Assembly: GCA_015233895.1 (NCBI GenBank) | Contig: JADFXG010000011.1 | Span: 37,212 to 101,211 of the forward strand | Length of the DNA stretch: 64,000 nucleotides | Source: Nitrospirota bacterium | GTDB taxonomy: Bacteria; Nitrospirota; Thermodesulfovibrionia; Thermodesulfovibrionales; Magnetobacteriaceae | Direction: 5' to 3' | Part shown: in pieces, positions 17,930 to 43,791 of the stretch | Position numbering within the stretch: position 1 is the first letter of the stretch | How the letters are laid out: the number at the start of each line of letters is the position of its first letter | Translations under genes and position numbers: made by a program | The notes under the pieces: generated by a model | Told to the model about the DNA's origin: nothing | Databases searched by the model: none | Seen by the model: only the letters and a program-made list of their open reading frames with translations

Positions 17930-17943
17930 AATTTTTGTTCTCC

Positions 17944-18433: not shown

Positions 18434-21400
18434 TCACTCCTGCCATATTCCCTGCCAGTTGTTATCAGGGAGGAATTCTTTGAGGTGTTCTGTTGTTTTA
18501 AGGTATTTAGCGCTGGGGCCGTCGTGCGGGTCAATGGAAAGGCAGTGTTTAAAGCTTTCAGCGGCCTCATCCCAATTTCTGTTATAGTAGTGTTGTTGAG
18601 CCATATTGAAGATGTTTAACAGTGTTTTTTTATTTTCATCAAGCGTACAGAAGTTTGATATCAGTTCATGGAACTCGTTAGGGCGCTTTTTTAGTTGTGA
18701 TGCAAACTGATTAAGCCGTTCATTTATAATCCGCTCGTTTGTTTTCATTTCAGCGGTTATAGCAGTAGTATCAACGCTGATACCAGATTTATTCAAAAGT
18801 GTTTTCAGATGCTCTGAAAGCTCTGTTGCGATTTTGTCAGCCTCAGTTGCATACGATATTCTTTTATTAATTGATAGCAGTCTTTTCTCAAGTACATCCA
18901 CTCTGCTATAGAGTGAATCTGACAGAGCACGCTCACCCATGTCTTTTAATATTTTTATATAAGGCACAGCCTTTATAATCTCTTTATACAATTCGGAAAG
19001 CCTTTTCTCTGTGAATGATACGTTAGAGGTGGATTGAGGCTCCGGAATCGGGATGCTTAAAGTTACGGCATGCCCTTCAGTTTTAAGGAGAAGCGTTTTT
19101 ATCTCTGCTTCAATTTCTGTAATGTTGAGAATATCCTTTGATTTCATATACTGTACAGCAACGGTGGAAAGTTCGGAAAACATGGTCTTTATTTCAGTTA
19201 ACAGTTCCGAGCCGGGTAAATCTTTTTCGGAGAAATAGTCATGATAACCGATGACCTTTTCAGGGCGCATTCTGCTTAAAGAATTCAAAATAAGCGCAGG
19301 GATTGGCTTGTCTTTCCAAAAGTTAAGAAAACGGTCTTTCCTCCAGCCTATGACCTCATATATCTTAACAGATTGTGCAGCGTGAGCTCTTTCAAATGCA
19401 CCGAGGTTACGTGCCTCGATGTGGTCCTTTACGAGGTCATAGGTACTCTCTGACATCATGATGCACGTATCAAAGATCTTATTAGCTGGTTCAAGCTCCT
19501 CAGCAAATGTTGCGGCATCACCCATGGCTGTGTACTGCATATGATTGTACGAGCCCATAATGGCTGCTGAGATTACGCCCGTGTTGATTCCCATTCGTGC
19601 TGTTATCATAACCCCATACTCTATGGCTATCATACGCTGGATGACTTTTAATTCCTCCTGGCTATACAGTGCACTGAGGCAACACTTCAGGGCCTGATCA
19701 TTATCGTCAAGAGGAATACCAAAGTCAGCCTTAATAGCATCTCCCTCATACTTGTCAACGTATCCGTCATAAGACATTATGATGTTGCTCATTGGCGTAA
19801 GATAGATGTTAAGAATATCAGCAAGTTCCCTGGATGTCACACCCTCAGATATAGTTGTAAAGCCGGATACGTCGGATGAAAACATTGTAGCAAGTTTTTT
19901 CTCACCTCCACGGTTAAACTTTTCAGGATGCTTCTCTAGCATCTTAAGCACTTCAGGAGATACCATGGCAGAGAACATTTTACGAATTTTTTGCCGTTCC
20001 ATACTCTCCCTTATGTACTTATATAAAATTCCTGAGATAAAGGCAAGGGCAATTGCAGATACTGCCTGAAATGTAGGCAGAAGCAGCCCCTGTTTTGTAA
20101 AGAAATACCAATCAAGCATTGCGTACACTGCGGTAACTAATAAAGTTACAGGACCGCTCCTAATCGGAGTAAACAACATAACTACGTTAAGAACAATAAC
20201 TACCAAAATAAAATTCAGAGAATATTTTAGCCACACCGGACAGTCTGTCAAAAACTGGCCTGTCATAATTGTGTTAAGCACATTGGGCATAAGGTCAAGC
20301 ATGGGATGATGTCTAAGGTATGGAGTAGGATTCAGTGCGGTCAAAGCGGTAGCGGTCAAGCCATAAAACACTATCTTATCTTTCAGATAAAGAGGTGATA
20401 TAACTGTGCGTTTACTGTCTATATCAATATCCGGCATAACAAAAAACAAAGGGCGTACCCTATAAACGTCGTTTCTTTTAATGTGGTAGGCAATCAAGTT
20501 GTAAGATTCCGTTAAGTTCATTGATTTAAGGTCATTTTCGGTAAGAGACAAGTCTGTGATAACATCTTTAAGTGGAGGGACTACTTTGTTTTCCACATGC
20601 TTTTTAACTATATAATTGTTAAACTTAATCTGCTTTGCCATCGAAAGCCAGAAATTATCTGTAGGGTCAAGTCCCATGGATGTCAGAGCCTCTGCTTCTG
20701 ACATCCCGTGGTCAACTATGTTTTGTTCAATATAAAAGGCTGCAAAAGCACGGGCGAAAATTTTATCAGCTGCTTCTTTAGATATATAAGGCAACTCAGA
20801 AAGTTTTAGAGGCACATATTTTTCTATATCCTCAGCTACAGGAATCTTTTTGATTTCATCCTTAGTAATCTGATACGCTACCAGTTCGGATATCATGCTA
20901 AAGGGCAGACGCGCAAATGTATCATTATAGCTGCCCGCCCAGTTAATGTTCATGCTGCCTGTGTTGTCAACAGGAATCTTTACGAAGGAGTTTTTTCCTT
21001 TTAGTTTTATATATCGACTGTCACCTGTGTAAATATTCTCTGTATGAAGCAGCTTGCGGACAAGGTTAAGCGGAAGTGAACCGTATAGCATGTTTTGGTA
21101 TATAGCCATAAGAGGATACTTTCTAACCACACCGTCAGGGGAAAGGTGGATTTGGTTAAATCCTGCGCAAGCCATGCTTTTTAAGATACTCTCTTTGGGT
21201 ATGATTATGTTTGTAGCTACAGGGAAATTCCATTTAGAGCCTTCTACCGCAGTTTTTGCTGAAAGAAGTTCTAAGCTGTGTTTTTCTATAGTTGTGGCGG
21301 ATGTCTTTAGTGTGCCGGTAACACTATGTTTGCCATCCGGTTCCGGTATTTTAAAATCAACATCTGCACAAGCATTGCCATTTTTCTTTAAACTGTCACT

Positions 21401-21838
21401 CAGATACTCCTCATAGTCAGGAATTGTGGAACCAATGTCCTTTTTCCCATATCCGGCAAGAATTCTATTTTTGACACTCTCTAAAGAACCCCTGTCTATG
21501 GCGTTATTGCTGCCTTGTGAAAAATCCATGTTAACAAAAACAATATCCGCAACACCGTATTCAGTCAGAAAATTCACGATGTCACCGTGTATGAACCACG
21601 GCCATGGCCACCGTCCGGTAACATCTATGTCTTTGTCGTCAATGTCAAGAGTTATGATGTTGGGGTAAATCTTAATTTTAGGCCTTAACTGAAATTTTAC
21701 ATTTAAAATCCTGTTTTCTATGATGTCAAATGATCCCAGAGCGATAAAAAGTGTTAAAAACAGGGAAACGGAAAGTAAGAGAGCCGCCATAGGAACAAAT
21801 CGTTTGTACCTTTGAGTTGCTAATAAAAGAAATTTCAT
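18434..21838 (-). CDS. CHASE2-domain class III adenylate/guanylate cyclase with TPR-like tail (copy 2)
   Basis: I prefer the start MKFLLLATQ at 21838, 1 nt after the upstream stop. It has an N-terminal TM segment, the CHASE2 motif DDKDIDVTGRWPWPW, and 3 TM helices. The cyclase core is ATMFSSDVSGFTTISEG...YEGDAIKADFGIP...GINTG. The C-terminus has a TPR-like ...W.EA...F...L...P.DGP motif. Confidence 0.85.
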   Translation of the reverse strand: MKFLLLATQRYKRFVPMAALLLSVSLFLTLFIALGSFDIIENRILNVKFQLRPKIKIYPNIITLDIDDKDIDVTGRWPWPWFIHGDIVNFLTEYGVADIVFVNMDFSQGSNNAIDRGSLESVKNRILAGYGKKDIGSTIPDYEEYLSDSLKKNGNACADVDFKIPEPDGKHSVTGTLKTSATTIEKHSLELLSAKTAVEGSKWNFPVATNIIIPKESILKSMACAGFNQIHLSPDGVVRKYPLMAIYQNMLYGSLPLNLVRKLLHTENIYTGDSRYIKLKGKNSFVKIPVDNTGSMNINWAGSYNDTFARLPFSMISELVAYQITKDEIKKIPVAEDIEKYVPLKLSELPYISKEAADKIFARAFAAFYIEQNIVDHGMSEAEALTSMGLDPTDNFWLSMAKQIKFNNYIVKKHVENKVVPPLKDVITDLSLTENDLKSMNLTESYNLIAYHIKRNDVYRVRPLFFVMPDIDIDSKRTVISPLYLKDKIVFYGLTATALTALNPTPYLRHHPMLDLMPNVLNTIMTGQFLTDCPVWLKYSLNFILVVIVLNVVMLFTPIRSGPVTLLVTAVYAMLDWYFFTKQGLLLPTFQAVSAIALAFISGILYKYIRESMERQKIRKMFSAMVSPEVLKMLEKHPEKFNRGGEKKLATMFSSDVSGFTTISEGVTSRELADILNIYLTPMSNIIMSYDGYVDKYEGDAIKADFGIPLDDNDQALKCCLSALYSQEELKVIQRMIAIEYGVMITARMGINTGVISAAIMGSYNHMQYTAMGDAATFAEELEPANKIFDTCIMMSESTYDLVKDHIEARNLGAFERAHAAQSVKIYEVIGWRKDRFLNFWKDKPIPALILNSLSRMRPEKVIGYHDYFSEKDLPGSELLTEIKTMFSELSTVAVQYMKSKDILNITEIEAEIKTLLLKTEGHAVTLSIPIPEPQSTSNVSFTEKRLSELYKEIIKAVPYIKILKDMGERALSDSLYSRVDVLEKRLLSINKRISYATEADKIATELSEHLKTLLNKSGISVDTTAITAEMKTNERIINERLNQFASQLKKRPNEFHELISNFCTLDENKKTLLNIFNMAQQHYYNRNWDEAAESFKHCLSIDPHDGPSAKYLKTTEHLKEFLPDNNWQGIWQE

Positions 21839-21839
21839 A

Positions 21840-24800
21840 TCATTTCCTTGTCTGGATAAACTCACCTTGCCACGATGGCGGAGGAGGAGATTCCTTATAA
21901 AACTCTATTCTTTTAATTAAAGACTCAGCCGGAGGGTCTCCCGGCAGTACTGCCGCCGAAAGTTTAAACATATCGAGAGCCTCATCCCATTTCCGCTGAA
22001 AATACAACTGCAACCCTGCCTCGTAGTGCGTTTTTGACTTTAATACCGCATCAGAAGGACTGCCAAGATGTGCAGCCATTTCATGATATACCTCTGGCTT
22101 AAGTTGAAGCTTTGCATAGAATTGTTCTACGACAGTCCTGAACTTTGCCTGATAATTAAGTAAAGATACATTGAGTTTTCTTATTTGTGCCTCTGATGAG
22201 CCTTTAACTTGTTGTATATATCTTTCCATTTCGTTTATACAGCCAATGATAACTTCACTTTCAGGATTTTCTTTTAAAAGAAAACGATTTTGAAATAAAC
22301 TGGCTTTTGCTAACACGTTGTTAGACTCTTCTGATAGCTCATTCAGAGTGTAATCGGTGTGTTTTATCGTATGAGCACTCTCGGAAATCAAATTTTTCAT
22401 GCTGCTTAGTTCTGTAACAATGTCGGAAAGTACATCATTTTTGGGCAGAAATGGTTTAAACTCACGGCCAAAAACATTTGCCATACTATGTCTGAGCTGT
22501 CTCATAGCCATAACTATACCAAGAAATTCAATCCTCCACTCAGTTATTAAAAGCTCTGAGACAAGAGGTATGGTATTGTCAAAAAAGGTGAAAATCTCAA
22601 CAGCTGATTCAAATCCTGTGTCCTTAGCACGTTTTTTCCACACATCCCTGTAACAGAAAAACTTCTCGGCAGAGCACTTTAACCAGTTATACTTTACAAA
22701 TTGCGGAACTGGTTTGGATTTATGAAAATCTCTGTAAGCCTCCGTAACCCACCCAAGGACCTCATATATTGCAGTAGGTTTTGTTTTTCCTTTAAGCAGC
22801 AGCTTATCCAACATCCTCAGGTGTACGTAGTCTTTTATTTCAGGAACGGTGTCTTTTCCTGTCAGAGCATTTCTTGCGTTATAGATAAAATTAGCAGCCA
22901 TAAACCGTGCGGATACGTTAACTGAATCCCCCATGACGGTGTACTGGAATTTTCCTTCAGATCCCATATTACCCGCTGAAACGTATCCAAAATTAAACCC
23001 CATCGAGACAGACACTGGCCGCCCATAGCGCATGGTAACAAATCTTTTAAAAGCCTCTATGTCAAGATTCTGTTCGATAGTGGCAAAGGCACACTTTACA
23101 GCGCTCTGCGGGTCATCCAGAGGGACTCCGAAGTCAGCCATGATGACGTGTCCTTCGTACTTATCTATATAACCGTCATAGCTGGTAATGATCTCGCTGT
23201 TGGGAGACAAATATATGCTCAGTATGGCCGGCAGTTCATCCGGAGACACATCTTTAACAATATCCGACATGCCTTGTATAAGAGAAAAAAATGTTGTCAC
23301 GGCTTTTCTTTCACCTGTCAGAGCGAATTTGTCAGGATTGTTTTCCATCGTCTTTAAAATAGATGGCGAAACCATCTTGGAAAACATTAGTCTCATTAGT
23401 TTTCTTTCAAAATATGCCTCCACATACCTCACAAGCGCTAAAGCCAGAAATGTAATTGCAATAGCCCCCACTGGCACCACCCAATTAAACCAGTACCCTT
23501 TTGTAACCCACAATCTGTACGTAACAATGATATAGCTAAGGGCTAAGACAGCTGAGGCTGGAAAAGCCATCTGAAGGACTAAAAAACTGCAAAGCAAGCC
23601 GGTTATAATGGAAAGAAGTATGGTGATAGCATAAGTATAAGTCTCAGGAACGTGCCACAGGAAATTACCTGTCAGTATGGTGTTTATGGCATTTAGGTGA
23701 TAAGAGACCATAGGTGAGCTTTTTTCAAAAGGGGTTGGATTAAGATCAATAGTGCCGGTGCCGGTAAGACCTGCTATGAAAAGTTTGTTGTTAAGGTCAA
23801 CCGGAGAAAAAGGTGATAAAACTCCATTATTTTTTACTTGTAGCAACGGTGGGAAGTAGTACGGATAAATGTCTCTTAATCGTCCTTTTTTTGCAAAAGA
23901 ATGAATATTTCTAAATATTTCAAAGACAAGTTGGGCATCTGTATTTTGTGGATAGACTTTATTGAACTCTTCAAAGGTAATGGAGGGCTTCTGAGTAATA
24001 ACTTTTTCAATATTGTATGCAACCCTGATTTCATTTAAGTCTTTCTTAAGGCTGCTGCCGTTATTGTCATAGAGCTTCATAGTTTCAAAGACAACATTGT
24101 CGTCAACTCCTGAATCAATCAGTTTAGATATAAACCAGGCATTTGCGGTTTTTTCAGAAATTTGTGAACTTTCCGCGCCAGTGACAAGGCTTTCCTCGTC
24201 AATAGCTGTTTTAATTGTTGTTTTAAGAGCCTTAAAACCCTCTGCTGTCAGTTCATAGTTTGATTTCCTCGCCTCTTCTTTTGCCCGTATAACGGCATAG
24301 TAGTATGATATGTGTCTAAAGGGCACGTGCAGAAATGTGTCATTAGATTTACCTGCCCAGTTGACAAGCATTTGAAAGTGCTTATCAATGGGGATTTCAA
24401 TATCAGAGCGGGTTTGAGCATTTAGCTTTTTAGCGTTTTTTAAAGTTAAAGATTCTCCCTGAGAAATTCTCATTTCATTTAGTTTAAAGTCAAGGACGTT
24501 GGAGAGCATTGAAAGCACCAGAGGATAAATCTCAGAGTTATCATAGTATCTAAGTAGTGGGTAGTTTCTGACCACTGAGTCTTCATCAAATCCTGGTTGT
24601 GCAAAGCCAAGGCCAGTGGAGGCTGTGATAAATTCAGGAGATGGCGGTGTGATGTTTATGTCTTTAAGCAGTGAGCTATTATAAGCAGTAGAAGTTGGCA
24701 AAAACGTTTTCTTTAATAACCCCATTGAGGCCTTCTCTGAGTCTGTCATCTCAGAGTTTAAGCGCTTAGTTTGCCCAAGAACTTTATTTATATCATTAGT

Positions 24801-25313
24801 GACAGCGGTTTTGCCATAAATTTTGGTGAAATAAGCAAGATAGACAATCCCTGCTTTTCTGATTGACTCTGCAAATTCCTTATCGTAATCCTTAAAAGAG
24901 GTTTCAACCACAGTGTTAAATTCCTTAAAGCCATGAGTAATTTCTGCTGATGTATAATCTCTGATTTTTTCAGGTAAAAAACGTACATTTTCCTTTTCAA
25001 CAAAAAACACATCAAACCCGATGGCTTTAGCACCATAAAAACTCAAAGTATTAACAAGGGCTACCTCGCGCATCCTGGACCACGGCCACTGCCCGCATAA
25101 GGACAGTGATTCGTCATCAAAATCTATATAGCCTATATCTTTAGATGTTGCAACAGGAGGCCTTAACCGGTATCTGAGGTCAAGCGTGTAGAGTTCTATG
25201 TCATTCGGAATCTTTAAAAATCCTGAAAAGATCGCAATGGCACCAATTATAAAACCAAACAGAACTCCATAGAGTGTTTTTCCTGTTTTTGTCTTTAGAT
25301 TGAGTAATTTCAT
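21840..25313 (-). CDS. CHASE2-domain class III adenylate/guanylate cyclase with TPR-like tail (copy 1)
   Basis: It has the same architecture as its neighbour: DDESLSLCGQWPWSRM (CHASE2), TM helices, VTTFFSLIQGMSDI...YEGHVIMADFGVP (cyclase) and a TPR-like tail. Confidence 0.85.
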   Translation of the reverse strand: MKLLNLKTKTGKTLYGVLFGFIIGAIAIFSGFLKIPNDIELYTLDLRYRLRPPVATSKDIGYIDFDDESLSLCGQWPWSRMREVALVNTLSFYGAKAIGFDVFFVEKENVRFLPEKIRDYTSAEITHGFKEFNTVVETSFKDYDKEFAESIRKAGIVYLAYFTKIYGKTAVTNDINKVLGQTKRLNSEMTDSEKASMGLLKKTFLPTSTAYNSSLLKDINITPPSPEFITASTGLGFAQPGFDEDSVVRNYPLLRYYDNSEIYPLVLSMLSNVLDFKLNEMRISQGESLTLKNAKKLNAQTRSDIEIPIDKHFQMLVNWAGKSNDTFLHVPFRHISYYYAVIRAKEEARKSNYELTAEGFKALKTTIKTAIDEESLVTGAESSQISEKTANAWFISKLIDSGVDDNVVFETMKLYDNNGSSLKKDLNEIRVAYNIEKVITQKPSITFEEFNKVYPQNTDAQLVFEIFRNIHSFAKKGRLRDIYPYYFPPLLQVKNNGVLSPFSPVDLNNKLFIAGLTGTGTIDLNPTPFEKSSPMVSYHLNAINTILTGNFLWHVPETYTYAITILLSIITGLLCSFLVLQMAFPASAVLALSYIIVTYRLWVTKGYWFNWVVPVGAIAITFLALALVRYVEAYFERKLMRLMFSKMVSPSILKTMENNPDKFALTGERKAVTTFFSLIQGMSDIVKDVSPDELPAILSIYLSPNSEIITSYDGYIDKYEGHVIMADFGVPLDDPQSAVKCAFATIEQNLDIEAFKRFVTMRYGRPVSVSMGFNFGYVSAGNMGSEGKFQYTVMGDSVNVSARFMAANFIYNARNALTGKDTVPEIKDYVHLRMLDKLLLKGKTKPTAIYEVLGWVTEAYRDFHKSKPVPQFVKYNWLKCSAEKFFCYRDVWKKRAKDTGFESAVEIFTFFDNTIPLVSELLITEWRIEFLGIVMAMRQLRHSMANVFGREFKPFLPKNDVLSDIVTELSSMKNLISESAHTIKHTDYTLNELSEESNNVLAKASLFQNRFLLKENPESEVIIGCINEMERYIQQVKGSSEAQIRKLNVSLLNYQAKFRTVVEQFYAKLQLKPEVYHEMAAHLGSPSDAVLKSKTHYEAGLQLYFQRKWDEALDMFKLSAAVLPGDPPAESLIKRIEFYKESPPPPSWQGEFIQTRK

Positions 25314-25381
25314 TATTTGAGAGAGTAGTCATCTTACTAATGGCACAAAGCCAAAAATACAGTTTCCTATCTGTTAGTGTT

Positions 25382-25903
25382 TCATTGTTTTTGGTTATAC
25401 AATTCTATAATTTTATCTGTCACGTCAATAGATGACTTGTGGTAAGCTATCCCACCGGTGTTTTTCTCCATTATAATTGTATAGTCGTATTTTTTCCCTA
25501 TCTCATTTATTATTTCATTTAAGTCTTTAAACACCTGGGCTTTCAGCCATTTTTCCATCTTGAGCACTTCCTGATCGAGATCTTCTTTCTGTCTTTTCAG
25601 TTCTTTCAGTTTCTGGGTAAATTGCTCTTCTGTTTTTAGTTTTTCCTCCAGTTTGAGGTCTGCCTTGTCAATTTTCTCTTTTAACTTTTTAAGTTCCTCT
25701 TCTTTTTGCACAAAAGGAACCTTCTTTTTTGATAACGTATCATCATATCTTTTCTGGTATTGCTTTACAGGTTTAGCCTCAGCAATTACTCTCTGTATTT
25801 CAAACACTCCAATTTTTATAGACTCAGCACTTTGTGCACTAACGGTAAACACTGTAAATACTTGCACAAGAACACAAATAGCTATCAGTGGAAATCTCTT
25901 CAT
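25382..25903 (-). CDS. Skp/OmpH-family periplasmic chaperone
   Basis: I prefer the start MKRFPLIAI at 25903 with an AGGAGG RBS. It has a signal peptide ending SAQS, then KIGVFEIQRVI..., then a long Lys/Glu coiled-coil arm. The size of 173 aa fits the family. Confidence 0.75.
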   Translation of the reverse strand: MKRFPLIAICVLVQVFTVFTVSAQSAESIKIGVFEIQRVIAEAKPVKQYQKRYDDTLSKKKVPFVQKEEELKKLKEKIDKADLKLEEKLKTEEQFTQKLKELKRQKEDLDQEVLKMEKWLKAQVFKDLNEIINEIGKKYDYTIIMEKNTGGIAYHKSSIDVTDKIIELYNQKQ

Positions 25904-25922
25904 CACTATATTTCTCAACCTC

Positions 25923-27458
25923 CTAAAGTTTATACTCAATTCCGGCAGTGTACATGTTTCGTATGTATTCGTAAATGAAAACATTAGATTTAACATCTGA
26001 ATGTGTGAAGTTAAAGTTGACAGTAACATTCTTCATGACTTGCCAAATGAGACTTGCACCACCCGTATAAGAATCATCCCTCCTCATAACATAAAACACA
26101 TCATTTACATTACTGTATCTTTGGAAAAATGCCTCACCTGTAAGTATGCCTGTAAGAGTTTTTTCTTTAACAGGAACAACAAGTCCAACATTGAACTTAT
26201 GTCCTTCATTTACCCAATTACTGCCTAAGGTGTTATCAAAGGAGTAATCGTACTTTATGTTAAGCATGCCGAGGCCTTTGGAAAAAGCATACACATAACC
26301 CAGACCAGTTAGGTATCTGTCCGCATCCCTGTTCTCTTCAGGAGCGAATACCTGTCCCATCATTTTAAGCTTCTCAATACCCATATACATTTGCACTATG
26401 TTGTTAGGCTTAAAGACCCAACTGTAAGTAGGCTTAACAGATAAAGAATACATGTAGGGCGTATCTCTCAGTACAGCATGTGTGAAGGAGATGGGAAATG
26501 AAACTGCAGAGTTTTTGAGATTATATCCTGGGTTTAAAGTTAAACTATTTACATATAAATTATGGGTCTCATTTTTAAAATAAACCGTACTAAGGAAATT
26601 ATATTGAGCATTGAGAAACCATTTGCTGCCAAGGTTTGGACGATAATCCACTCTAAGCATGTTTAATATGGCGCTGTCTTTTTCCCCTGTAATTATTAAC
26701 CCAGGAATATCATCAACGGGTTTGTCTAACACATTGTCGTCATACCTGTAAGACATACCAATAGTAACTTGCCACGGCTTGAACATCTCCTTGCCTTTTG
26801 CTAACTCCTTTTGATACTCCTTTGCAAATGTAGCCGTATCAGATTTCGGATCAGCTGCTACCACGTTGTCCAGATAGCTGGAGGCTTCATCAAATCGTCT
26901 CTCCCTGCCATACGCTATAGCCAGTTGGAAATCTGCTGTCTGAGCCACTGTTGGATCAAGCTCTTTAGCTTTTTTAAATGCAGTTATGGCCTCAGAGTTA
27001 TCATCATCTTTTAACAACACCAACCCTTTTAAAAACGCAATCTGTCCTGGTACTACATCGTTATTTTCTGCTTTTTGTATCCACTGCAGCGCCTCTTCAA
27101 GTTTATTTGAGACATACAGGGTTCCTATCAGCTCCACATAGGCCTCTTTCATCGGGGGTACATAGTGGAGTGATTCTTTAAGATACTTCTCCGCACTTTT
27201 TAAATCACCTATCTTCTTAAAAGTAATCCCCAGATAATAAGATATAACTGAGGTGGCAGGTTGCTCCTGTTGGGCTTTTTTTAACAGCTCCAACGCCTCC
27301 TCGTAATTCTCAGCCTTAAACTGCTCTATTCCTTCAGATATATAGTCTGTGGCTCCATGTAAAGCATTGGGACTTAATCCCAGAAGCAAAATCAAAACAC
27401 ATATACTTACTGCTCTCTTAAGAGCAACTCCACTCACTTTTATATTTACCACGAGCAA
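25923..27458 (-). CDS. Outer-membrane protein: N-terminal TPR domain plus C-terminal beta-barrel (Slam/DUF560-like architecture)
   Basis: It has a signal peptide (..LLLGLSPNALHG) and about 200 aa of TPR repeats (AENYEEALELLKKA.., YYLGITFKKIGDLKSAEKYL.., AFKKAKELDPT..). About 300 aa of alternating-hydrophobic strands follow, rich in Y/N/G turns and ending ...YTAGIEYKL. The exact start is uncertain: TTG at 27458 or GTG at 27452. Confidence 0.65.
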   Translation of the reverse strand: MLVVNIKVSGVALKRAVSICVLILLLGLSPNALHGATDYISEGIEQFKAENYEEALELLKKAQQEQPATSVISYYLGITFKKIGDLKSAEKYLKESLHYVPPMKEAYVELIGTLYVSNKLEEALQWIQKAENNDVVPGQIAFLKGLVLLKDDDNSEAITAFKKAKELDPTVAQTADFQLAIAYGRERRFDEASSYLDNVVAADPKSDTATFAKEYQKELAKGKEMFKPWQVTIGMSYRYDDNVLDKPVDDIPGLIITGEKDSAILNMLRVDYRPNLGSKWFLNAQYNFLSTVYFKNETHNLYVNSLTLNPGYNLKNSAVSFPISFTHAVLRDTPYMYSLSVKPTYSWVFKPNNIVQMYMGIEKLKMMGQVFAPEENRDADRYLTGLGYVYAFSKGLGMLNIKYDYSFDNTLGSNWVNEGHKFNVGLVVPVKEKTLTGILTGEAFFQRYSNVNDVFYVMRRDDSYTGGASLIWQVMKNVTVNFNFTHSDVKSNVFIYEYIRNMYTAGIEYKL

Positions 27459-27495
27459 ATCTCCATTGAATCGTCTATATTTTTAGCAACGCTGT

Positions 27496-28038
27496 TTAAT
27501 GCGCAACAGTGTAGCCTGTAACATTGTCTTCACATAAAATACCTGTTACGGCTCTTTTTGGAGCAGTTAACCCCTGTAAACATGTCATGAGTATGTTTAA
27601 GCACGATGCTTGAATGCCAGAGGAGTCAAATGACACGTTACCTATAAATGAAAGAGTCCCCCCATAGGCGCCGGATGTACCAACATCTGTTGAGGATAAT
27701 GTTAAAGTTTCATAACCTGTGACAGGGCTATAGACAGAAGCTGTTTTCCCTGAGAAAGCTATCTGTCGTGTCATCGAACTTTTGAGCAGGCTTGCGGTGC
27801 TAAAAGTTTGTGTTGTTGATGTTGGCGTATCGTTGTCTGCTGAGTCCACTGTAAAGCTGACTGTCATATTTTCTGAGGACATGTTAGATGTCAAACAGTA
27901 CACAACGTTATTTGTACTTGTATGTAGATACGGCAGATGATAATAGACAGCAGTATTGGCAGGAACATTACTGATGGCAAAAAGAATGATAATAAAAAGA
28001 CTAAATAATATTATTGCATATTTCCCTAAATTTTTCAT
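27496..28038 (-). CDS. Secreted protein consisting only of the CTD (type A, ends TVAH)
   Basis: A signal peptide is followed directly by VYYHLPYLHTSTNNVVYCLTSNMSSENMTVSFTV...GAYGGTLSFIGN...SGIQASCLNILMTCLQGLTAPKRAVTGILCEDN. An ATGA overlap couples it to the FecR-domain gene stop, and it has an AGGAGA RBS. Confidence 0.8.
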   Translation of the reverse strand: MKNLGKYAIILFSLFIIILFAISNVPANTAVYYHLPYLHTSTNNVVYCLTSNMSSENMTVSFTVDSADNDTPTSTTQTFSTASLLKSSMTRQIAFSGKTASVYSPVTGYETLTLSSTDVGTSGAYGGTLSFIGNVSFDSSGIQASCLNILMTCLQGLTAPKRAVTGILCEDNVTGYTVAH

Positions 28039-31000
28039 CTGATATCTCCTGTTTTTCTAGTTAATGTATGAGACACCTTCTCTATTGTCGTAGATATTGG
28101 TGTCGTCACTAAAGAAATAAATGGGACGGACACTATCCCTGCACCGTTTCCTGATAAGCTGCCGTCAGCGTACGAACCTGAGGCTACACCGTACATATTC
28201 ACGTTGCCTGACCATGTACTGCCATTTAGGTATCCCCCTGAGGAAAGGTCTGCGTTAGTCGTTGAATCTCCTATAAGCGCTGCCCAACTACCAGTTGCCC
28301 ATTTATAAAAGTGCCAATAAAGTGTTAGTCCATCTGAATTACCAAAAACTATCTCTTTACTGGTTATATTTGAACTTGTTAGATAGCTGCTAAAAGAATA
28401 GGAACCTGTCACACTCCCTATCGTATATATTGATGGGGCTGAACCGCTGGAGGAGGCAAAAAACACTACATTCCCCAACGTTATATTCATATAATCTCCG
28501 TTGATCGATAAAGAACCAGTAAGAGTTGTTCTTCCAATCTCAACAGAAGGCAGGTTTAAATAGCTGAGTGAGCTTATGGCTGATGATGTGGAACAGCCCG
28601 AGGCTCCTGTACTGTTTCCACAAGCAAGATTTAAAAACGTTGCAACGTCCATGTAGATTCCTACACTTCCAAACTCAATTACGTTTGCGTTTCCACCTAA
28701 TCCATCATCATAGGATGTCAGTGAACCTAACAACCCTCCACTGTATATCACAGATTTATTATTTGAGTCAACATAGGTTGAATATACGTTGCCGTAATAT
28801 ACACCATTAGTGTTACCGTTAATGGAAACCAGTGAATAACCAGGACCATAACTATACAGATTCGCAAGCCCTCCGTACTGGTTATCATATGCAGATTCGT
28901 ACCCTGAGTACATATTGTGCGCAAAAGCAATACTATCTATTCCTTCATAGATAAAGCCATGGCTGAAAGATACTCCATAATAAGCGTCTGACACATTGAT
29001 TGGAACATAGGTTAGATTGCCGTTTCCTGACCAACCCCCACTGTTGTTGAAGCTTCCGGTTATACCGCCTGAACCGTTATAATACGAGACCATTGCTCCA
29101 GAGCCATCGGTACCATAATAGATACCAGCAAAATCAGCGTATAGATCATTAGGGCTACCATCGCTTCCTTTAACTCCAGCCAAATAACCCGACACAGTGT
29201 ACCCAGAATATGAGCCGCTTATCGAACTTAACCAAAGTGGATACATAGTGGTGTTTGCATTTGAATACGTACCGGAGGCTGTCACAGATTCAGTAGTTAT
29301 CGTCGATGTATCGGATGGAAACGCACCTGTTAAAGTCCCTGAGACGCCATCTGATGTTCCATTGTTGTAAGGGTATGAGTCCAATGAGACACCGTAAAAA
29401 CCATAGTATGAGTCTTTTGTAACAGATGAGGTAAATAGCGCTGTTGTTGTCGTAGCTGTTGTAGTTGTGGTTGTCTCTCCGCCACCACCACCTCCTCCAG
29501 ATGTTGTTGTGGTTGTCGTAGAGGTAGTAGATGCTGTGGTTGTGGTGGTTGTTGTCGGTGCTGTTGTAGTTGTAAGCGCTGTTGTTGTGGCCGGTGCTGT
29601 TGTCGTTGTAAGTGCTGTTGTTGTGGCTGGTGCTGTTGTAGTAGTCAGTGCTGTTGTAGTTGTCAATGCTGTTGTAGTTGTAAGTGCTGTTGTAGTTGTA
29701 AGTGCTGTTGTTGTAGTCAGTGCTGTTGTAGTTGTAAGTGCTGTTGTAGTTGTAAGTGCTGTTGTTGTTGTAAGTGCTGTTGTTGTAGTAAGTGATGTTG
29801 TCACAGTAGGTATATTGCCAGTACCCGTACCCGTACCAGTGCCAGTGCCAGTACCCGTACCCGTACCAGTGCCCGTACCAGTGCCCGTGCCAGTGCCCGT
29901 GCCAGTACCTGTGCCCGTGCCAGTACCTGTGCCAGTACCATTACCTGTGCCATTACCTGTTGTGTCAGACGAACCAGAAGATCCGGATGATGACCCTGAA
30001 GATCCGGACGATGACCCTGAAGATCCGGACGATGACCCTGAAGAGCCAGAGGATGAGTCAGAAGAGCCAGATGATGATCCGGATGAACCGGACGATGACC
30101 CTGAAGAGCCAGAGGATGAGTCAGAAGAGCCAGATGATGATCCGGATGAACCGGACGATGAGCCTGAAGAGCCAGATGATGATCCGGATGAACCTGATCC
30201 CGATGACGAGTCAGAAGAGCCTGATGATGATCCAGAAGAGCCTGATGATGATCCAGAAGAACCGGATGATGACCCTGATGATCCAGATGAACCGGATGAC
30301 CCTGAGGATCCAGATGAACCCTGTCCTCCGCTGCCACCACTACCACCACTACCTCCACTGCCACCGCTACCACCAGTGCCTCCACTGCCACCACTGCCAC
30401 CACTGCCACCGCTGCTGGAGGATTTAGGTGCCGGCGTTGTATCTTTACCGTAACTGTTCTTTTCAGATTGTGTCATTGTGGTTGGAGCTGAAGGCGCTTG
30501 TCCCAGAGCTACAGAGGTTTTTTGCCCCGCATTTACTTTTACCTCCGGACTGCCTGAAATCTCTGTACTTTTTACCCCTACGCTACCGTCTGCAGTTCTA
30601 ATATCCGTACCGGTATTGGAATTAAAAGAGGTTTGCCAGTCTGTTCCTCTGACTCCGGCAACTGCGTTAGGGGTGTGGATTTCAAAATGGTCAGAGCTCT
30701 TAGCTCCTGCAAGGCGAGAAGCTATACTCTTTTGCACAATAGCTTGTACCTTACCCCTTGGAAGGGCTAACTTAGCATGATATACTCCGTCCGTTACCTT
30801 AAACTCGTTTATATCAACTCGTGTATTTTCTGCAAGCCTTACGATACTGCCATCATTGAACATTATCTCAGCCTTTGACTTACTCTTGGTTCTAAGTACA
30901 TCCTGTTCACTTATTAAATCTCCCACTTTAAGTACTACTGCAGGAAGTTTCCCGCCTCGAAGCACGTCAACGGTACCATCAATTGCAGTTACTTTTCCGA

Positions 31001-31085
31001 CAGAATTATCGGCATGTAACTGTCCGATGAAAACTAAACTCAGTAGTAAAAATACGATAATTAAACCAATTTTTCTGTTTTTCAT
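28035..31085 (-). CDS. Secreted FecR-domain protein with a low-complexity Ser/Gly/Thr linker of about 330 aa and a Gly/Ser/Tyr-rich C-terminal region of about 480 aa
   Basis: Signal peptide, then the FecR-like module GKVTAIDGTVDVLRGGKLPAVVLKVGDLISEQDVLRTKSKSKAEIMFNDGSIVRLAENTRVDINEF...GVRGTDW. Next come (GGS)n, (SSGSSG)n, (GT)n and (TTTTAL)n runs. The C-terminal region is one I do not recognise. GGAGAA RBS 7 nt upstream, 15 nt after the preceding stop. Confidence 0.8.
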   Translation of the reverse strand: MKNRKIGLIIVFLLLSLVFIGQLHADNSVGKVTAIDGTVDVLRGGKLPAVVLKVGDLISEQDVLRTKSKSKAEIMFNDGSIVRLAENTRVDINEFKVTDGVYHAKLALPRGKVQAIVQKSIASRLAGAKSSDHFEIHTPNAVAGVRGTDWQTSFNSNTGTDIRTADGSVGVKSTEISGSPEVKVNAGQKTSVALGQAPSAPTTMTQSEKNSYGKDTTPAPKSSSSGGSGGSGGSGGTGGSGGSGGSGGSGGSGGQGSSGSSGSSGSSGSSGSSSGSSGSSSGSSGSSSGSSDSSSGSGSSGSSSGSSGSSSGSSGSSSGSSDSSSGSSGSSSGSSGSSSGSSDSSSGSSGSSSGSSGSSSGSSGSSSGSSGSSDTTGNGTGNGTGTGTGTGTGTGTGTGTGTGTGTGTGTGTGTGTGTGTGTGNIPTVTTSLTTTTALTTTTALTTTTALTTTTALTTTTALTTTTALTTTTALTTTTALTTTTAPATTTALTTTTAPATTTALTTTTAPTTTTTTTASTTSTTTTTTSGGGGGGGETTTTTTATTTTALFTSSVTKDSYYGFYGVSLDSYPYNNGTSDGVSGTLTGAFPSDTSTITTESVTASGTYSNANTTMYPLWLSSISGSYSGYTVSGYLAGVKGSDGSPNDLYADFAGIYYGTDGSGAMVSYYNGSGGITGSFNNSGGWSGNGNLTYVPINVSDAYYGVSFSHGFIYEGIDSIAFAHNMYSGYESAYDNQYGGLANLYSYGPGYSLVSINGNTNGVYYGNVYSTYVDSNNKSVIYSGGLLGSLTSYDDGLGGNANVIEFGSVGIYMDVATFLNLACGNSTGASGCSTSSAISSLSYLNLPSVEIGRTTLTGSLSINGDYMNITLGNVVFFASSSGSAPSIYTIGSVTGSYSFSSYLTSSNITSKEIVFGNSDGLTLYWHFYKWATGSWAALIGDSTTNADLSSGGYLNGSTWSGNVNMYGVASGSYADGSLSGNGAGIVSVPFISLVTTPISTTIEKVSHTLTRKTGDIR
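29467..30453. repeat. Coding microsatellite-like arrays inside the FecR-domain gene (18-bp TTTTAL units, 6-bp GT units, 9-18-bp SSG units)
   Basis: Direct reading shows repeated GTAAGTGCTGTTGTAGTT-type units at about 29570-29800, CCAGTACCCGTACC-type units at about 29815-29960, and GATGATGACCCTGAAGATCCGGAC-type units at about 29965-30420. Confidence 0.85.
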
Positions 31086-31100
31086 TATTAATTCTCCGCT

Positions 31101-32552
31101 TTAATTTCCATTGTCACAGACATGTCCTGTCATTAGCCGTTTAGGGTTTAATGTCCCCTGATAACACTCAAGCAGCACGCTTTTACAACTTGCCTCCGTA
31201 CCGCTTGTGTAAACCGATGTTGAGGTAAATTTGAGAAATCCCCCGTATATGCTTGCTTTGTTGGTATCACTCATAATTATAGTCTCATTATTAGATGATG
31301 ACAACGAGATAGTATTTTGCGAAAATTTTATAATATACATTTTTTTAGACGCCAAATAATTAGCAAAAGTGTTGGTTGTGCCGGAGGGTGTCGCATTATC
31401 GGCTGCTCCTACCGTAAATTTTACAGTTAAATCCTGTGACGACCTGTTTGATGCGATACAATAGCTTGGGTTAGAGCTATTTGTTGATAAGTAGGGAAAA
31501 TAATATGTAATATAAGATATGCTTGCTGAATACACTCCGGTAAAGATATAACCCCCAAAGGGTACAGCAACAAGTTTTAATCCGTCTGATGAGGACGCTA
31601 TGGAATACCAATCTCTGCTACCGGCACTCGTTTGCTCTGTCCATGTAGCTCCTGAATCTGTTGAGGTATAAATAAACCCGCCATAATCTATCGCAGCAAG
31701 TTTAGTCCCATCTGATGAGGACGCTATCCCACCCCAAAATCTGCTGCCGGAACTGGTTTGCTCAGTCCATGTAGAACCTGAATTTGTTGATGTATATATA
31801 TAACCATTATTTATGCCACCAACTACGGCAGCGAGCTTTGTCCCATCTGATGATGATGCTATTGAAGTCCAGGTTCTATTGTCAGCAACGGTTCGCTCAG
31901 TCCAATCAACACCCGAATTTGTTGAGGTATAGATAAACCCACCAGTACCATCAGTACCACTATCTACGGCAGCGAGTTTTGTTCCATCGGATGATGACGC
32001 TATCCCATTCCAACCTCTAATGTTAGAATTGGTTTGCTCTGTCCAATGATCACCTGAATTTGTTGAGGTATAGATATAACCTGGGGAATAATCTGTAGCA
32101 GCGAGTTTTGTTCCATCTGATGAGGACGCTATTGCATACCAACTTCTGCTACCGGAACTTGTGCGCTCTGTCCATATAGCACCTGAATTTGATGAGGTAT
32201 AAAGATAACCTGGACTACCATCTGCAGCAACGAGTTTTGTTCCATCTGATGATGACGCAATTGCAGCCCAAAATCTGCTGCCGGCTAAAGTTTGCGGTGT
32301 CCAATTATCTCCTGAATTTGTTGAGGTATATATATACCCACCTGAGCCACTGCCATCATAATCAACAGCAGCGAGTTTTGTCCCATTATCTGATGACGCT
32401 ATTCCACCCCAATCTCTGTTACCGGCGTCGGTTTGCTGAGTCCATGTCCACCCTGCATAAGACACTGTTGGCAACAACAATATTAACATTAACAACAAAA
32501 CAAAATATTTCGCTAAAAAACTGTGTGTTTTCATAACCGTATCATTATTCAT
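31101..32552 (-). CDS. Secreted Asp-box (BNR-like) beta-propeller protein with type B CTD (ends CDNGN)
   Basis: Signal peptide ..LPTVSYA|GW, then about 8 repeats of YIYTST(N/D)SG..WT.QT..GSR.W..IASSSDGTKLAA (the Asp-box SxDxGxTW). The CTD is FPYLSTNSSNPSYCIASNRSSQDLTVKFTV...SCKSVLLECYQGTLNPKRLMTGHVCDNGN. Confidence 0.8.
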   Translation of the reverse strand: MNNDTVMKTHSFLAKYFVLLLMLILLLPTVSYAGWTWTQQTDAGNRDWGGIASSDNGTKLAAVDYDGSGSGGYIYTSTNSGDNWTPQTLAGSRFWAAIASSSDGTKLVAADGSPGYLYTSSNSGAIWTERTSSGSRSWYAIASSSDGTKLAATDYSPGYIYTSTNSGDHWTEQTNSNIRGWNGIASSSDGTKLAAVDSGTDGTGGFIYTSTNSGVDWTERTVADNRTWTSIASSSDGTKLAAVVGGINNGYIYTSTNSGSTWTEQTSSGSRFWGGIASSSDGTKLAAIDYGGFIYTSTDSGATWTEQTSAGSRDWYSIASSSDGLKLVAVPFGGYIFTGVYSASISYITYYFPYLSTNSSNPSYCIASNRSSQDLTVKFTVGAADNATPSGTTNTFANYLASKKMYIIKFSQNTISLSSSNNETIIMSDTNKASIYGGFLKFTSTSVYTSGTEASCKSVLLECYQGTLNPKRLMTGHVCDNGN

Positions 32553-32576
32553 TCAATTAACCTTTTAAACCTGCCT

Positions 32577-34025
32577 TTAATGCCCAAGTGCTGTTGAAGA
32601 CACGGTGTCTATACAAGCATAACCAGTAACGGGTCTTCTGGGTTCACTATATCCTTGTAAACAGGAGATTACAACATTATGACAGGAGGCCTGAGTGCCT
32701 GATAAATATGCAGCCGTACTAACAAAAGCCAGAGACCCGCCGTATGAGCCTGAATTAGCAATATTCGATAATAAAGACAGAGACTCAGTTCCGCTTAGTG
32801 GATTATAAATTGAGGCGGTTTTTTCTTGAAACGTGAACAGCCGTGTAGTTTGGCTGTTAAGATAGTTTGAAAATGTTTGTTTACCGGCACCGGCAGCAGG
32901 TGAGTTATTGTCAGCCGATTTCACTTCAAAGCTAACGGTCATATTCTCTGAGGATAAGTTTGAAGCTATACAGTAAACGGTATTATTTGTATTTGTATGA
33001 AGATAGGGGATGTTGTATGCAACAGTTGAGGGATAGTAGCCAGTGTAAATATAGCCACCATAAAGTGCAGCAGCAAGTTTTGTCCCATCTGATGATGACG
33101 CAATTGCATTCCAACTTCTGCTGCCGGCACTCGTTTGAGCAGTCCATGTAGCTCCTGAATCTGTTGATATATATATATAGCCACCAGAAACTGTAGCAGC
33201 GAGTTTAGTCCCATCTGATGATGACGCTATCCCATCCCAGGGTTGGATACCGGCACCCGTTTGTGTAGTCCAATTGCCACCTGAATTGGTTGAGGTATAT
33301 ATATACCCACCACTGCCGCCATTCCAAACTACCGCAGCGAGTTTTGTCCCATCTGATGACGATGCTATTGAATACCAACCCCGGCTACCAGCATTCATTT
33401 GTGGTGACCATGTAGAGCCTGAATTGGTTGAGGTATAAATATAACCACTTTCAACTGCAGCAGCAAGTTTTGTTCCGTCTGATGAGGACGTTATTCCAAC
33501 CCAAAATCTGCTGCCAACAGCAGTATGCGCAGTCCAATTATCACCTGAATTGGTTGAGGTGTATATGTACCCGCCACCGTCACTGCCAAAGTAATCTACC
33601 GCAGCGAGTTGTATCCCATCTGACGATGATGCTATTGAATACCAACCCCGGCTGCCAGCACTCGTTTGTTCAGTCCAATTGTCACCTGAATTGGTTGAGG
33701 TATAAATATAACCACTATAAGCTCCGGCAGCAAGTTTTGATCCGTCTGCTGATGAAGTTACAGCATGCCAATTTCTGCTACCGGCACTTGTTTTTGCTAT
33801 CCATGTAGCACCTGAATCTGTTGAGATATAAATGTAGCCTGGAGAAACTGCAGCGACAAGTTTTGTACCATCTGATGAGGACGCTATTGTTTGCCAGTTT
33901 TTGCTGCCGGAAACGGTTTGTCCTGTCCAAACCCAGTCGGCGGAAGACACCTCAGGCACCAACAAGATAACCAATAATGATGTTAATAAAAAAATGTGTT
34001 TAAATATAAAACTGTGCTTTTTCAT
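32577..34025 (-). CDS. Secreted Asp-box beta-propeller protein with type A CTD (ends LGH)
   Basis: I prefer the start MKKHSF at 34025 (GGGAGAC RBS). It has the signal peptide ..PEVSSA|DW and about 8 Asp-box blades. The CTD is YNIPYLHTNTNNTVYCIASNLSSENMTVSFEV...SGTQASCHNVVISCLQGYSEPRRPVTGYACID...LGH. Confidence 0.8.
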   Translation of the reverse strand: MKKHSFIFKHIFLLTSLLVILLVPEVSSADWVWTGQTVSGSKNWQTIASSSDGTKLVAAVSPGYIYISTDSGATWIAKTSAGSRNWHAVTSSADGSKLAAGAYSGYIYTSTNSGDNWTEQTSAGSRGWYSIASSSDGIQLAAVDYFGSDGGGYIYTSTNSGDNWTAHTAVGSRFWVGITSSSDGTKLAAAVESGYIYTSTNSGSTWSPQMNAGSRGWYSIASSSDGTKLAAVVWNGGSGGYIYTSTNSGGNWTTQTGAGIQPWDGIASSSDGTKLAATVSGGYIYISTDSGATWTAQTSAGSRSWNAIASSSDGTKLAAALYGGYIYTGYYPSTVAYNIPYLHTNTNNTVYCIASNLSSENMTVSFEVKSADNNSPAAGAGKQTFSNYLNSQTTRLFTFQEKTASIYNPLSGTESLSLLSNIANSGSYGGSLAFVSTAAYLSGTQASCHNVVISCLQGYSEPRRPVTGYACIDTVSSTALGH

Positions 34026-34131
34026 GGATAAGTCTCCCACTTTTGCTAAAAAACATCTAATCGCCTCGCAAACAGTATTTATGTAACATTAACACCCCGA
34101 TAGCAATTTTTTACGACACATTGCCTTTAGT

Positions 34132-34163
34132 ATTATACATTAACAGAAAAGAATAAATGTCAA
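34132..34163 (-). promoter_or_regulatory. Candidate promoter for the 32577..34025 / 31101..32552 pair
   Basis: On the minus strand, TATTGACA (-35 at 34163-34158) is followed by either ATGTAT (17-nt spacer) or TATAAT (20-nt spacer). The spacing is ambiguous. Confidence 0.35.
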
Positions 34164-34210
34164 TAACAAATGTTACCTAAAGAATATTTGTTAAAAATAT
34201 TTTATCTGTG

Positions 34211-36133: not shown

Positions 36134-36147
36134 TCAATTAACCACCA

Positions 36148-37584: not shown

Positions 37585-37704
37585 AAGTACATCTTAGCTA
37601 ACATCATAAACCACATAATCACTCCAGTGGAAATTACCGGTTTAACAGATTAAGGGTACAGACAGCATCCTCAACTCCAGCACACCCCATTCCAATCTAT
37701 TCAT

Positions 37705-37733
37705 GGTATAACATAAAAAATGAATAATGTCAA
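37705..37733 (-). promoter_or_regulatory. Candidate promoter for the 36148..37584 / 34211..36133 pair
   Basis: On the minus strand: TATTGACA (-35 at 37733-37728), a 17-nt spacer, then TATACC (37710-37705). Confidence 0.4.
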
Positions 37734-37802
37734 TAGGAAGTCAGGATGAAATTACGGTTACACATTCCAAACTTATAAAGATGCAACACTCCCATCCATT
37801 TT

Positions 37803-42224: not shown

Positions 42225-42269
42225 AAGCTCCTTATCCTCATCTCTCCAAATTAACCTATTAACCCACCA

Positions 42270-43685: not shown

Positions 43686-43762
43686 AGCTCCTCCTCGGCA
43701 TAACACAAAACCCACAGCTACATCAACACGCAATCACCATACGCTTAATTAAAGATAAACTA

Positions 43763-43791
43763 ACTATAAGATAAAAAAAATATTTTGTCAA
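43763..43791 (-). promoter_or_regulatory. Candidate promoter for the 42270..43685 / 37803..42224 pair
   Basis: On the minus strand: TATTGACA (-35 at 43791-43786), a 17-nt spacer, then TATAGT (43768-43763). Confidence 0.5.

Follow-up and report, generated by a model that had tools for sequence, protein, structure and literature searches.

The window analysed here is a stretch of 64,000 nucleotides (nt) from a Nitrospirota bacterium of the family Magnetobacteriaceae (assembly GCA_015233895.1, contig JADFXG010000011.1, positions 37,212 to 101,211), and the system in question is a block of six minus-strand genes at 18434-31085 that encodes a secreted FecR-domain protein, a stand-alone C-terminal domain (CTD), an outer-membrane barrel protein with tetratricopeptide repeats (TPRs), a Skp-like chaperone and two CHASE2 receptors with cyclase domains. 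An original prediction, made from the letters of the window, had described six tightly spaced genes beginning 15 nt past the last gene of an upstream propeller array, and the genes, their spacings and their domain assignments were all reproduced. Counted from the last propeller gene, the gaps along the block are 15, -4, 37, 19, 68 and 1 nt. In the order of transcription, the features are as follows.

31101..48357, minus strand: seven BNR/sortilin-like beta-propeller genes, each with the CTD at its end (Pfam and C-terminus alignment).
28035..31085, minus strand: FecR-long protein, 1016 residues (Pfam FecR, E = 1e-14).
27496..28038, minus strand: stand-alone CTD protein, 180 residues (no Pfam or NCBIfam match; aligns with the propeller-protein C-termini).
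25923..27458, minus strand: Slam/DUF560-like TPR and barrel outer-membrane protein, 511 residues (Pfam TPRs and a sub-threshold SlipAM match).
25382..25903, minus strand, inside open reading frame (ORF) 25382-26029: Skp/OmpH-family periplasmic chaperone with a signal peptide, 173 residues (Pfam OmpH).
21840..25313, minus strand: CycA, CHASE2 and Guanylate_cyc, approximately 1150 residues (Pfam).
18434..21838, minus strand, inside ORF 18434-21865: CycB, CHASE2, Guanylate_cyc and a C-terminal TPR, approximately 1150 residues (Pfam).

The gene order barrel, FecR (687-852 residues) and then OmpH was found in five Nitrospirota metagenome-assembled genomes (MAGs), with no CTD or CHASE2 genes nearby. 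A metagenome scan seeded on the barrel alone returned 63 loci at 27-44% identity, representing 32 lineages at 70% identity, and of the 47 loci whose downstream sequence extends for 600 nt or more, 44, from 27 of the 32 lineages, have a FecR-domain gene as the next gene on the same strand. The barrel-adjacent FecR proteins of these metagenomic loci range from 430 to 2245 residues, FecR is their sole recognisable domain, and the signal peptides of most are of the non-lipoprotein type. Because a FecR gene recurs next to the barrel across both the metagenomic loci and the MAGs, the barrel and the FecR protein are the conserved core of the region, and the FecR protein, not the CTD proteins, is the barrel's conserved partner.

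As had been predicted for the window, the FecR protein joins a FecR-fold module to a long flexible linker: a Sec signal peptide without a lipobox is followed by the FecR domain at residues 62-169 (nt 30579-30902), a low-complexity linker of approximately 330 residues rich in Ser, Gly and Thr, and a conserved C-terminal domain of approximately 430 residues (residues ~560-985; nt 28131-29408) that has no Pfam or PDB sequence match. The Nitrospirota orthologues share this three-part layout of FecR head, low-complexity linker of variable length and ~430-residue C-terminal domain. The FecR domain follows directly after a cleavable signal peptide, with neither an anti-sigma domain nor a transmembrane helix, as would be found in a FecR-type anti-sigma regulator, and there was no sigma factor or TonB-dependent receptor among the ten Pfam-scanned genes of the cluster. 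The linker DNA consists of several long tandem repeat arrays with periods of 6-105 nt (29558-30415), which yield spurious long ORFs in other frames (29467-30453, plus strand; 29801-30409, minus strand) and make the linker length liable to assembly collapse. Linker length and composition differ greatly among orthologues: relatives have linkers rich in Pro and Thr, and that of L017, a locus from a distant Nitrospirota MAG, is rich in Pro, Gly and Met for more than 500 residues.

The barrel protein carries a signal peptide, approximately six TPR pairs (residues ~35-225, with several Pfam TPR families matching at residues 35-215) and a beta-barrel of approximately 282 residues (residues 229-510; nt 25929-26774), the combination that the original prediction had likened to Slam/DUF560 translocators of the type XI secretion system (T11SS). 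SlipAM (PF04575) is the sole Pfam barrel family to match the window barrel end to end, covering profile positions 1-278 of 288 at a sub-threshold score of 18.7 bits for the full-length protein and 20.7 bits for the barrel alone (gathering threshold 22), while BBP2_2 and DUF2860 cover the C-terminal part alone. Orthologues score above the threshold (L003, 37.4 bits; L022, 34.4 bits; L033, 33.3 bits), and SlipAM is matched by 7/8 close members of the barrel family. A homologue search with the barrel part returned seven proteins, two of them annotated as DUF560 or surface lipoprotein assembly modifier; the six with a named source were all from Nitrospirota MAGs, one of them Ca. Magnetominusculus. 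In the AlphaFold2 model (mean predicted local distance difference test score, pLDDT, 83), 12 TPR helices precede a barrel at residues 229-510 whose DSSP elements fit 14 strands once two kinked strands are merged, and the best Foldseek superpositions of the barrel alone were to the 14-stranded OmpG (template modelling score, TM, 0.74) and to CymA (TM 0.65). Judged from the model, the protein would be Slam/T11SS-like, with a TPR domain and a barrel of approximately 14 strands; the clade probably belongs to DUF560, and the window sequence is a marginal case. T11SS have so far been described in Proteobacteria only (PMC8406197, PMC12282271).

A TPR domain is also joined to a barrel, there of 16 strands, in polysaccharide-export porins of the PgaA/BcsC/PelB type. 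BcsC was the first Foldseek match by E-value (5e-13) and PelBC was also listed, some PgaA homologues fall under PF04575 (PMC8406197), and the C-terminus of the barrel protein gives a weak match to EpsL/BBP2_2. However, the BcsC superposition reaches a TM of only 0.40-0.44 with a root-mean-square deviation of approximately 10 Å and is driven by the combination of TPRs and barrel, whereas the barrel alone lies nearer to OmpG and CymA, its DSSP pattern fits 14 strands in 282 residues, and the BBP2_2 and DUF2860 matches are limited to its C-terminal part. Nor do synthase or glycosyltransferase genes recur in the neighbourhoods, where FecR does. On barrel size, Pfam profile coverage and gene neighbourhood, the reading as an export porin is rejected as highly improbable.

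A dedicated Skp-like chaperone had been described beside the barrel, and the 173-residue protein matches Pfam OmpH (PF03938) at E = 5e-21 and 75.8 bits against a threshold of 32.4, over profile positions 1-139 of 141. Its gene is the next after the FecR gene in the five Nitrospirota MAGs and in loci L017, L047 and L048, and is a conserved neighbour within the Nitrospirota clade. At barrel-FecR loci Skp is confined to that clade and three metagenomic loci; since it was not found at most non-Nitrospirota barrel loci, even with a permissive threshold, Skp is ruled out as a universal component and is a clade-specific addition to the barrel-FecR core. Skp is the holdase of Slam translocation and is essential for Slam1-dependent translocation of TbpB, and a Skp encoded within the locus fits this published role with Slam cargo (PMC9090332).

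The last two genes of the block had been read as two paralogous CHASE2 receptors with cAMP or cGMP as output, and both do combine CHASE2 with a cyclase domain; they are not, however, independent receptors, and appear instead to be complementary, individually degenerate subunits. In class III cyclases, as in the mammalian C1/C2 enzymes, both subunits contribute to each active site, one with the metal-binding aspartates and the other with Lys, Asp/Thr, Asn and Arg. With Pseudomonas aeruginosa CyaB (PDB 3r5g; catalytic set D-K-D-T-N-R) as reference, CycA has the set L-K-H-T-N-R, in which both metal-binding aspartates are replaced (by Leu and His) and Lys, Thr, Asn and Arg are kept, and CycB has D-K-D-T-T-E, in which Asp, Lys, Asp and Thr are kept and the transition-state Asn and Arg are replaced by Thr and Glu. 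The full six-residue set expected of a homodimer is thus present in neither chain and only across the two. Both metal-binding aspartates are missing from all 24 CycA-type orthologues (35-68% identity), those with a named source being from Nitrospirota, Thermodesulfovibrionales or Hydrogenedentota. In the six complete tandem pairs (the window, L014/15, L017, L018, L082 and L083) the downstream partner keeps the aspartates and lacks Asn and Arg, and the generic CHASE2 cyclases retrieved were canonical in 38 cases out of 38. In residue pattern CycA resembles the mammalian C2 domain and CycB the C1 domain. With the aspartates supplied by CycB and Lys, Thr, Asn and Arg by CycA, only the A/B heterodimer would hold one complete site, which implies that the two would form an obligate heterodimer with a single active site, and the Lys-Thr pair predicts ATP as substrate, so that the product is probably cAMP.

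The same division is found in mammalian C1/C2 and in the alpha/beta subunits of soluble guanylyl cyclase, where the aspartates come from one half and the substrate and transition-state residues from the other, with one active and one degenerate site; unlike the C1/C2 case, each half here is a bacterial CHASE2 receptor polypeptide of its own, and the two genes lie in tandem. Engineered complementing mutants of Rv1625c exist, and no description of a natural bacterial heterodimeric class III cyclase was found in the literature searched. In L017 (8180-11689, GCA_002753335.1) two gene calls cover the CycB orthologue, a 523-residue CHASE2 part and a 636-residue cyclase part; the split may be genuine or may come from a frameshift or a fault in the assembly.

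CHASE2 genes are present in 17 of the 63 metagenomic barrel loci, in eight of them with a canonical cyclase and in seven with a SpoIIE/PP2C output. Because the outputs of the neighbouring receptors differ in this way, the CHASE2 sensor is their common element, and the barrel-FecR pair is tied to the CHASE2 sensor domain and not to cyclases specifically. The CHASE2-SpoIIE/PP2C receptors lie directly upstream of the barrel-FecR pair in L037, L039, L041, L043, L045, L075 and L079. A gene resembling PDEase_II, the class-II cAMP phosphodiesterases, occurs in 15 metagenomic loci, in 13 of which it immediately precedes the barrel gene on the same strand; none was detected in the window. These genes (L021-L030, L035, L042, L047, L066 and L078; also L006/L007) have a metallo-beta-lactamase fold, with a match at E = 5e-17. 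Taken by lineage, a CHASE2 or phosphodiesterase neighbour accompanies the barrel-FecR pair in 12/32. L017 has the order FecR-long, OmpH, CycA, CycB, and its CycA is 43% identical to that of the window.

The recurrent FecR-CHASE2 neighbourhood of which the original prediction had spoken is therefore seen in the window, in L017 and in the metagenomic loci, and extends to the barrel. A secreted FecR-domain protein beside a CHASE2 receptor, the arrangement of COG4254-type systems, is likewise present in the window, without LysM. The literature searched contained nothing relevant on DUF560 in combination with CHASE2 or with a secreted FecR protein. Outside the window genome, the barrel-FecR-CHASE2 association and the Nitrospirota Skp recur, and CTD genes adjoin the barrel in a sister MAG only.

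The barrel-FecR-Skp triad, the cyclase pair and the CTD genes could also be independent units that are adjacent by chance. The cyclase pair occurs without the triad in L014/15, L016, L018, L082 and L083 and the triad without the pair in L001-L005, and gene order in the window species differs from that in its relatives. Against chance, the FecR-Skp-CycA-CycB linkage recurs independently in L017, a CHASE2 or phosphodiesterase gene lies beside barrel-FecR pairs in more than a third of the lineages, as counted above, and FecR-CHASE2 adjacency is documented in Proteobacteria (PMC5192318). Coincidental adjacency of all three units is accordingly considered decidedly improbable.

The propeller paralogues do share one C-terminal domain, as had been predicted: the 180-residue protein consists of a signal peptide and a four-cysteine domain of approximately 140 residues, and this domain aligns with the C-termini of all seven upstream propeller proteins. 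A CTD profile search recovered 63 representatives among 1.84 billion, most of them stand-alone proteins of 160-250 residues and some of them C-terminal fusions to BNR propellers, a trypsin-like protease, an S8 protease or DUF1566. The description of one gene of the block as the tag alone is accurate for its architecture, but stand-alone is the family's commonest form and not a peculiarity of this locus. All ten representatives whose source was looked up were from Nitrospirota, several in named magnetotactic taxa. The family (P0009-P0070) has four invariant cysteines and a terminal residue that is usually aromatic, and the window CTDs (31101-48357) fall into two subtypes, PYLHT...CLQG...IGH and PYLST...CYQG. 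No curated Pfam or NCBIfam model of a sorting domain (type IX secretion system CTD, PEP-CTERM and similar) matched the CTD at E <= 0.01. The AlphaFold2 model is a 10-strand beta domain (pLDDT 68) whose Foldseek matches in the PDB had a best E of 0.05 and TM scores below 0.4, with TbpB, hemophilin and fHbp not among them; with 10 strands and nothing significant in the PDB, the CTD is rejected as a candidate T11SS cargo barrel.

The original prediction had gone on to propose that the barrel and Skp export or anchor the CTD propeller proteins, with the CTD as secretion tag and with FecR and CHASE2 only monitoring the surface layer. The CTD does have the look of a sorting domain, in that one conserved C-terminal domain with an aromatic end is joined to varied passengers; the looked-up CTD representatives and the genomes with the triad are all Nitrospirota, several of them in named magnetotactic taxa; and CTD genes abut the block in the window species and in the sister MAG nDJH6bin1. 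These are, however, the only genomes in which CTD genes adjoin the barrel. There was no CTD gene within 10 kb in the five other triad genomes or in the 63 metagenomic barrel loci, and no barrel, FecR or Skp gene was found at the CTD loci L010-L013. In addition, hhalign found the CTD unrelated to the C-terminal domain of FecR-long, the fold is unlike that of T11SS cargo, and most family members carry no passenger. With no linkage elsewhere and no cargo fold, a role for the CTD as export tag of the barrel is not supported, and we consider it improbable. Given the invariant cysteines, the terminal aromatic residue and the variety of passengers, among them proteases and DUF1566, a clade-specific sorting or anchoring domain for another pathway is possible and would suit the family.

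The propeller-CTD arrangement is repeated in nDJH6bin1 only, which was also the only hit of a GTDB scan with CTD patterns, the patterns being narrow and the negative correspondingly weak, and a CTD gene between the FecR and barrel genes is found in the window species only. The propeller and 180-residue CTD proteins are thus members of a secreted family, seen so far in Nitrospirota only and in several named magnetotactic taxa among them, whose position beside the barrel and cyclase units is species-specific. The window FecR protein has a C-terminal extension of approximately 30 residues (28035-28130, minus strand) that has no counterpart in the orthologues and reaches the ATGA overlap with the CTD-only gene, which suggests that this gene was inserted recently and reshaped the FecR stop codon. 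Overall, the region is composed of three separate modules: barrel-FecR-Skp, the CycA/CycB pair and the clade-specific CTD proteins.

Computed domain content, synteny statistics, and the complementarity and conservation of the catalytic residues are best explained by a proposed signalling chain across the envelope, running from the barrel through the FecR protein and the CHASE2 heterodimer to cAMP, with the CTD proteins standing apart. A functional chain from barrel to FecR to CHASE2 is supported by the linkage in L017, by the joint presence of triad and cyclase pair in two genomes, albeit on separate contigs, by the CHASE2 and phosphodiesterase neighbours, by LysM-FecR proteins encoded beside CHASE2 kinases in Proteobacteria (PMC5192318) and by the outer-membrane barrel NsrA, which is required for signalling by the CHASE2 cyclases of Sinorhizobium meliloti (PMC7529298, PMC13001267). 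Which proteins touch one another, how the FecR protein is placed in the envelope, which way the signal runs and what product is made are inferred, as follows. The barrel would work with the secreted FecR protein encoded beside it, and in Nitrospirota Skp would hold this long and partly disordered protein in a state fit for export. The FecR head would remain in the periplasm and contact the TPR domain of the barrel, by analogy with Escherichia coli, where FecR meets FecA of the outer membrane through its periplasmic domain (PMC5498481), at the periplasmic extension of FecA, while the linker and C-terminal domain, held by Skp, would be handed to or through the barrel. The head would then pass information on the envelope or surface to CycA and CycB by way of their CHASE2 domains in the periplasm, and the heterodimer would turn the signal into cAMP. 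Our confidence in this chain is evenly balanced.

Several observations weigh against it. In genomes where triad and cyclase pair could both be located they mostly lie apart, with linkage in two lineages only; in two genomes (L001 with L082, and L002 with L083) they are on different contigs. No CHASE2 or phosphodiesterase gene was seen in 20/32 lineages, many of those contigs being short. The restricted distribution of Skp counts here as well, as do the position of the window's own barrel protein just under the Pfam DUF560 threshold and the presence of a SlipAM match in only 7/21 barrels of the wider family, where partial BBP2_2 and DUF2860 matches are commoner. The C-terminal domain of FecR-long has no detectable sequence likeness to known T11SS cargo barrels, and a fully secreted FecR protein could not reach a periplasmic CHASE2 domain.

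Full secretion is the substance of the main competing explanation, in which the barrel is an ordinary T11SS secretin, the FecR protein is its adhesin-like cargo, and the CHASE2 and phosphodiesterase genes only regulate the system through cAMP. The cargo gene would adjoin the gene of the outer-membrane protein, as is the rule in T11SS, and the FecR proteins are laid out like known T11SS cargo, in which a Sec signal peptide and a variable N-terminal effector are joined to a C-terminal beta domain, frequently through a disordered spacer rich in Pro and Thr (PMC12282271). FecR-long also has weak NCBIfam matches to the Leptospira surface adhesin Lsa33 and to LipL45, and Slam cargo depends on Skp (PMC9090332). 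However, the neighbouring sensors have CHASE2 in common and differ in output between cyclase and PP2C, which points to a link with the sensor and not with cAMP; in other systems, such as that of the LysM-FecR proteins (PMC5192318), FecR domains encoded beside CHASE2 sensors lie in the periplasm; and a T11SS-type cargo barrel is not detectable in the FecR protein by sequence. Secretion without signalling is on this evidence judged unlikely. A more specific form of the signalling chain, to which we give a fairly low probability, would have the Slam-like barrel recruited as the outer end of a sensor, with the FecR protein threaded through it, the C-terminal domain on the surface, the periplasmic head docked on CHASE2 and, in these Nitrospirota, the heterodimeric cyclase with its single active site as readout.

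Each component of the proposed chain resembles a known system in part. The N-terminal periplasmic TPRs, the barrel of approximately 280 residues, the end-to-end PF04575 match (sub-threshold in the window protein), the probable involvement of Skp and the adjacent client gene, whose product combines a Sec signal peptide with a disordered spacer and a C-terminus rich in beta structure, are shared with Slam/T11SS; this locus type, by contrast, is found in Nitrospirota and varied metagenomic lineages, encodes Skp within it, has a partner with a FecR domain in which no TbpBBD or lipoprotein-C barrel was detected by sequence, and is set among CHASE2 and cyclic-nucleotide genes instead of genes for metal or haem uptake. 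As in FecA-FecR-FecI, a periplasmic FecR-family domain is proposed to couple an outer-membrane barrel to an inner-membrane signalling device. The FecR protein here differs in being secreted by way of a signal peptide with no anti-sigma domain or transmembrane helix, there is no gene for an extracytoplasmic function (ECF) sigma factor or TonB-dependent transducer nearby, and the inner-membrane partner would be a CHASE2 receptor. In S. meliloti, NsrA with CyaK, CyaD1 and CyaD2 likewise presents an outer-membrane barrel that is genetically needed for input to CHASE2 adenylate cyclases (PMC7529298, PMC13001267), although NsrA is a different barrel of approximately 1200 residues with no known FecR adaptor, and its cyclases are not described as complementary pairs. 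A secreted FecR protein beside a CHASE2 receptor is shared with the COG4254 LysM-FecR and CHASE2 histidine kinase systems (the Burkholderia 'BiofilmReg' operon; P. aeruginosa PA4035/PA4036; PMC5192318), which differ in their kinase output, in having LysM instead of a long linker and C-terminal domain, and in that no barrel or Skp has been reported for them.

As for transcription, the view that all six genes form one operon holds with respect to their spacing, and co-transcription is plausible from the layout of the genes, but the block is not conserved as a unit, given the two genomes in which triad and cyclase pair are on different contigs and two further assemblies in which the barrel, FecR and Skp genes are all missing from the 10 kb on either side of the pair. 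No terminator-like site was found in any of the five intergenic gaps of the block, promoter and terminator consensus matches across the region are at chance level, and an Rfam scan of the window gave no match. An 11/12 sigma-70-like promoter match (TTGTCA, 17 nt, TATAAT) at 31276-31304 on the minus strand sits in the 3' end of the last propeller gene, approximately 190 nt upstream of the FecR start codon, at the chance frequency of such matches region-wide. Between the TAA of the last propeller gene and the ATG of the FecR gene there are 15 nt, and a GGAG ribosome-binding site stands 8-9 nt ahead of that ATG. For the barrel gene, GTG 27452 is a likelier start than TTG 27458, since a GGAG ribosome-binding site precedes this GTG by 8 nt and the orthologues are approximately 14 residues shorter (27437-27466, minus strand). 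With this start the gap to the preceding gene would be approximately 43 nt instead of 37.

Directly downstream of CycB lies a mercury-methylation gene pair (16467-18219, minus strand), in which the ferredoxin gene after hgcA looks like hgcB.

17944-18219, minus strand: small AbrB/SpoVT-like ORF that precedes hgcA.
16751-17929, minus strand: hgcA (NCBIfam HgcA, E = 3.5e-118).
16467-16766, minus strand: hgcB-like 99-residue ferredoxin with two [4Fe-4S] motifs and a C-terminal CC (sequence motifs).

Upstream of the propeller array, a dense signalling cluster at 48567-58576 (minus strand), read by eye, comprises a response-regulator-PAS-histidine kinase, CheB-like and CheR-like proteins, a large HAMP-GAF hybrid kinase and a GGDEF protein.

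Although CHASE2 domains are widespread as extracytoplasmic sensors, no ligands are, to our knowledge, known for them. The repeated occurrence of the nearly invariant barrel-FecR pair beside CHASE2 receptors with different outputs, and beside phosphodiesterase-like genes, provides two concrete candidates for upstream partners of CHASE2, and a threaded FecR protein, if the tentative arrangement above is true, would be the long-sought input of these receptors. The barrel family extends Slam/T11SS-like proteins beyond Proteobacteria and beyond cargo for nutrient acquisition, with the Skp holdase encoded in the locus. With CycA and CycB, the C1/C2 design of animal cyclases would have a natural counterpart among prokaryotes, useful for understanding the evolution of asymmetric cyclases and the integration of two sensor domains in one catalytic site.

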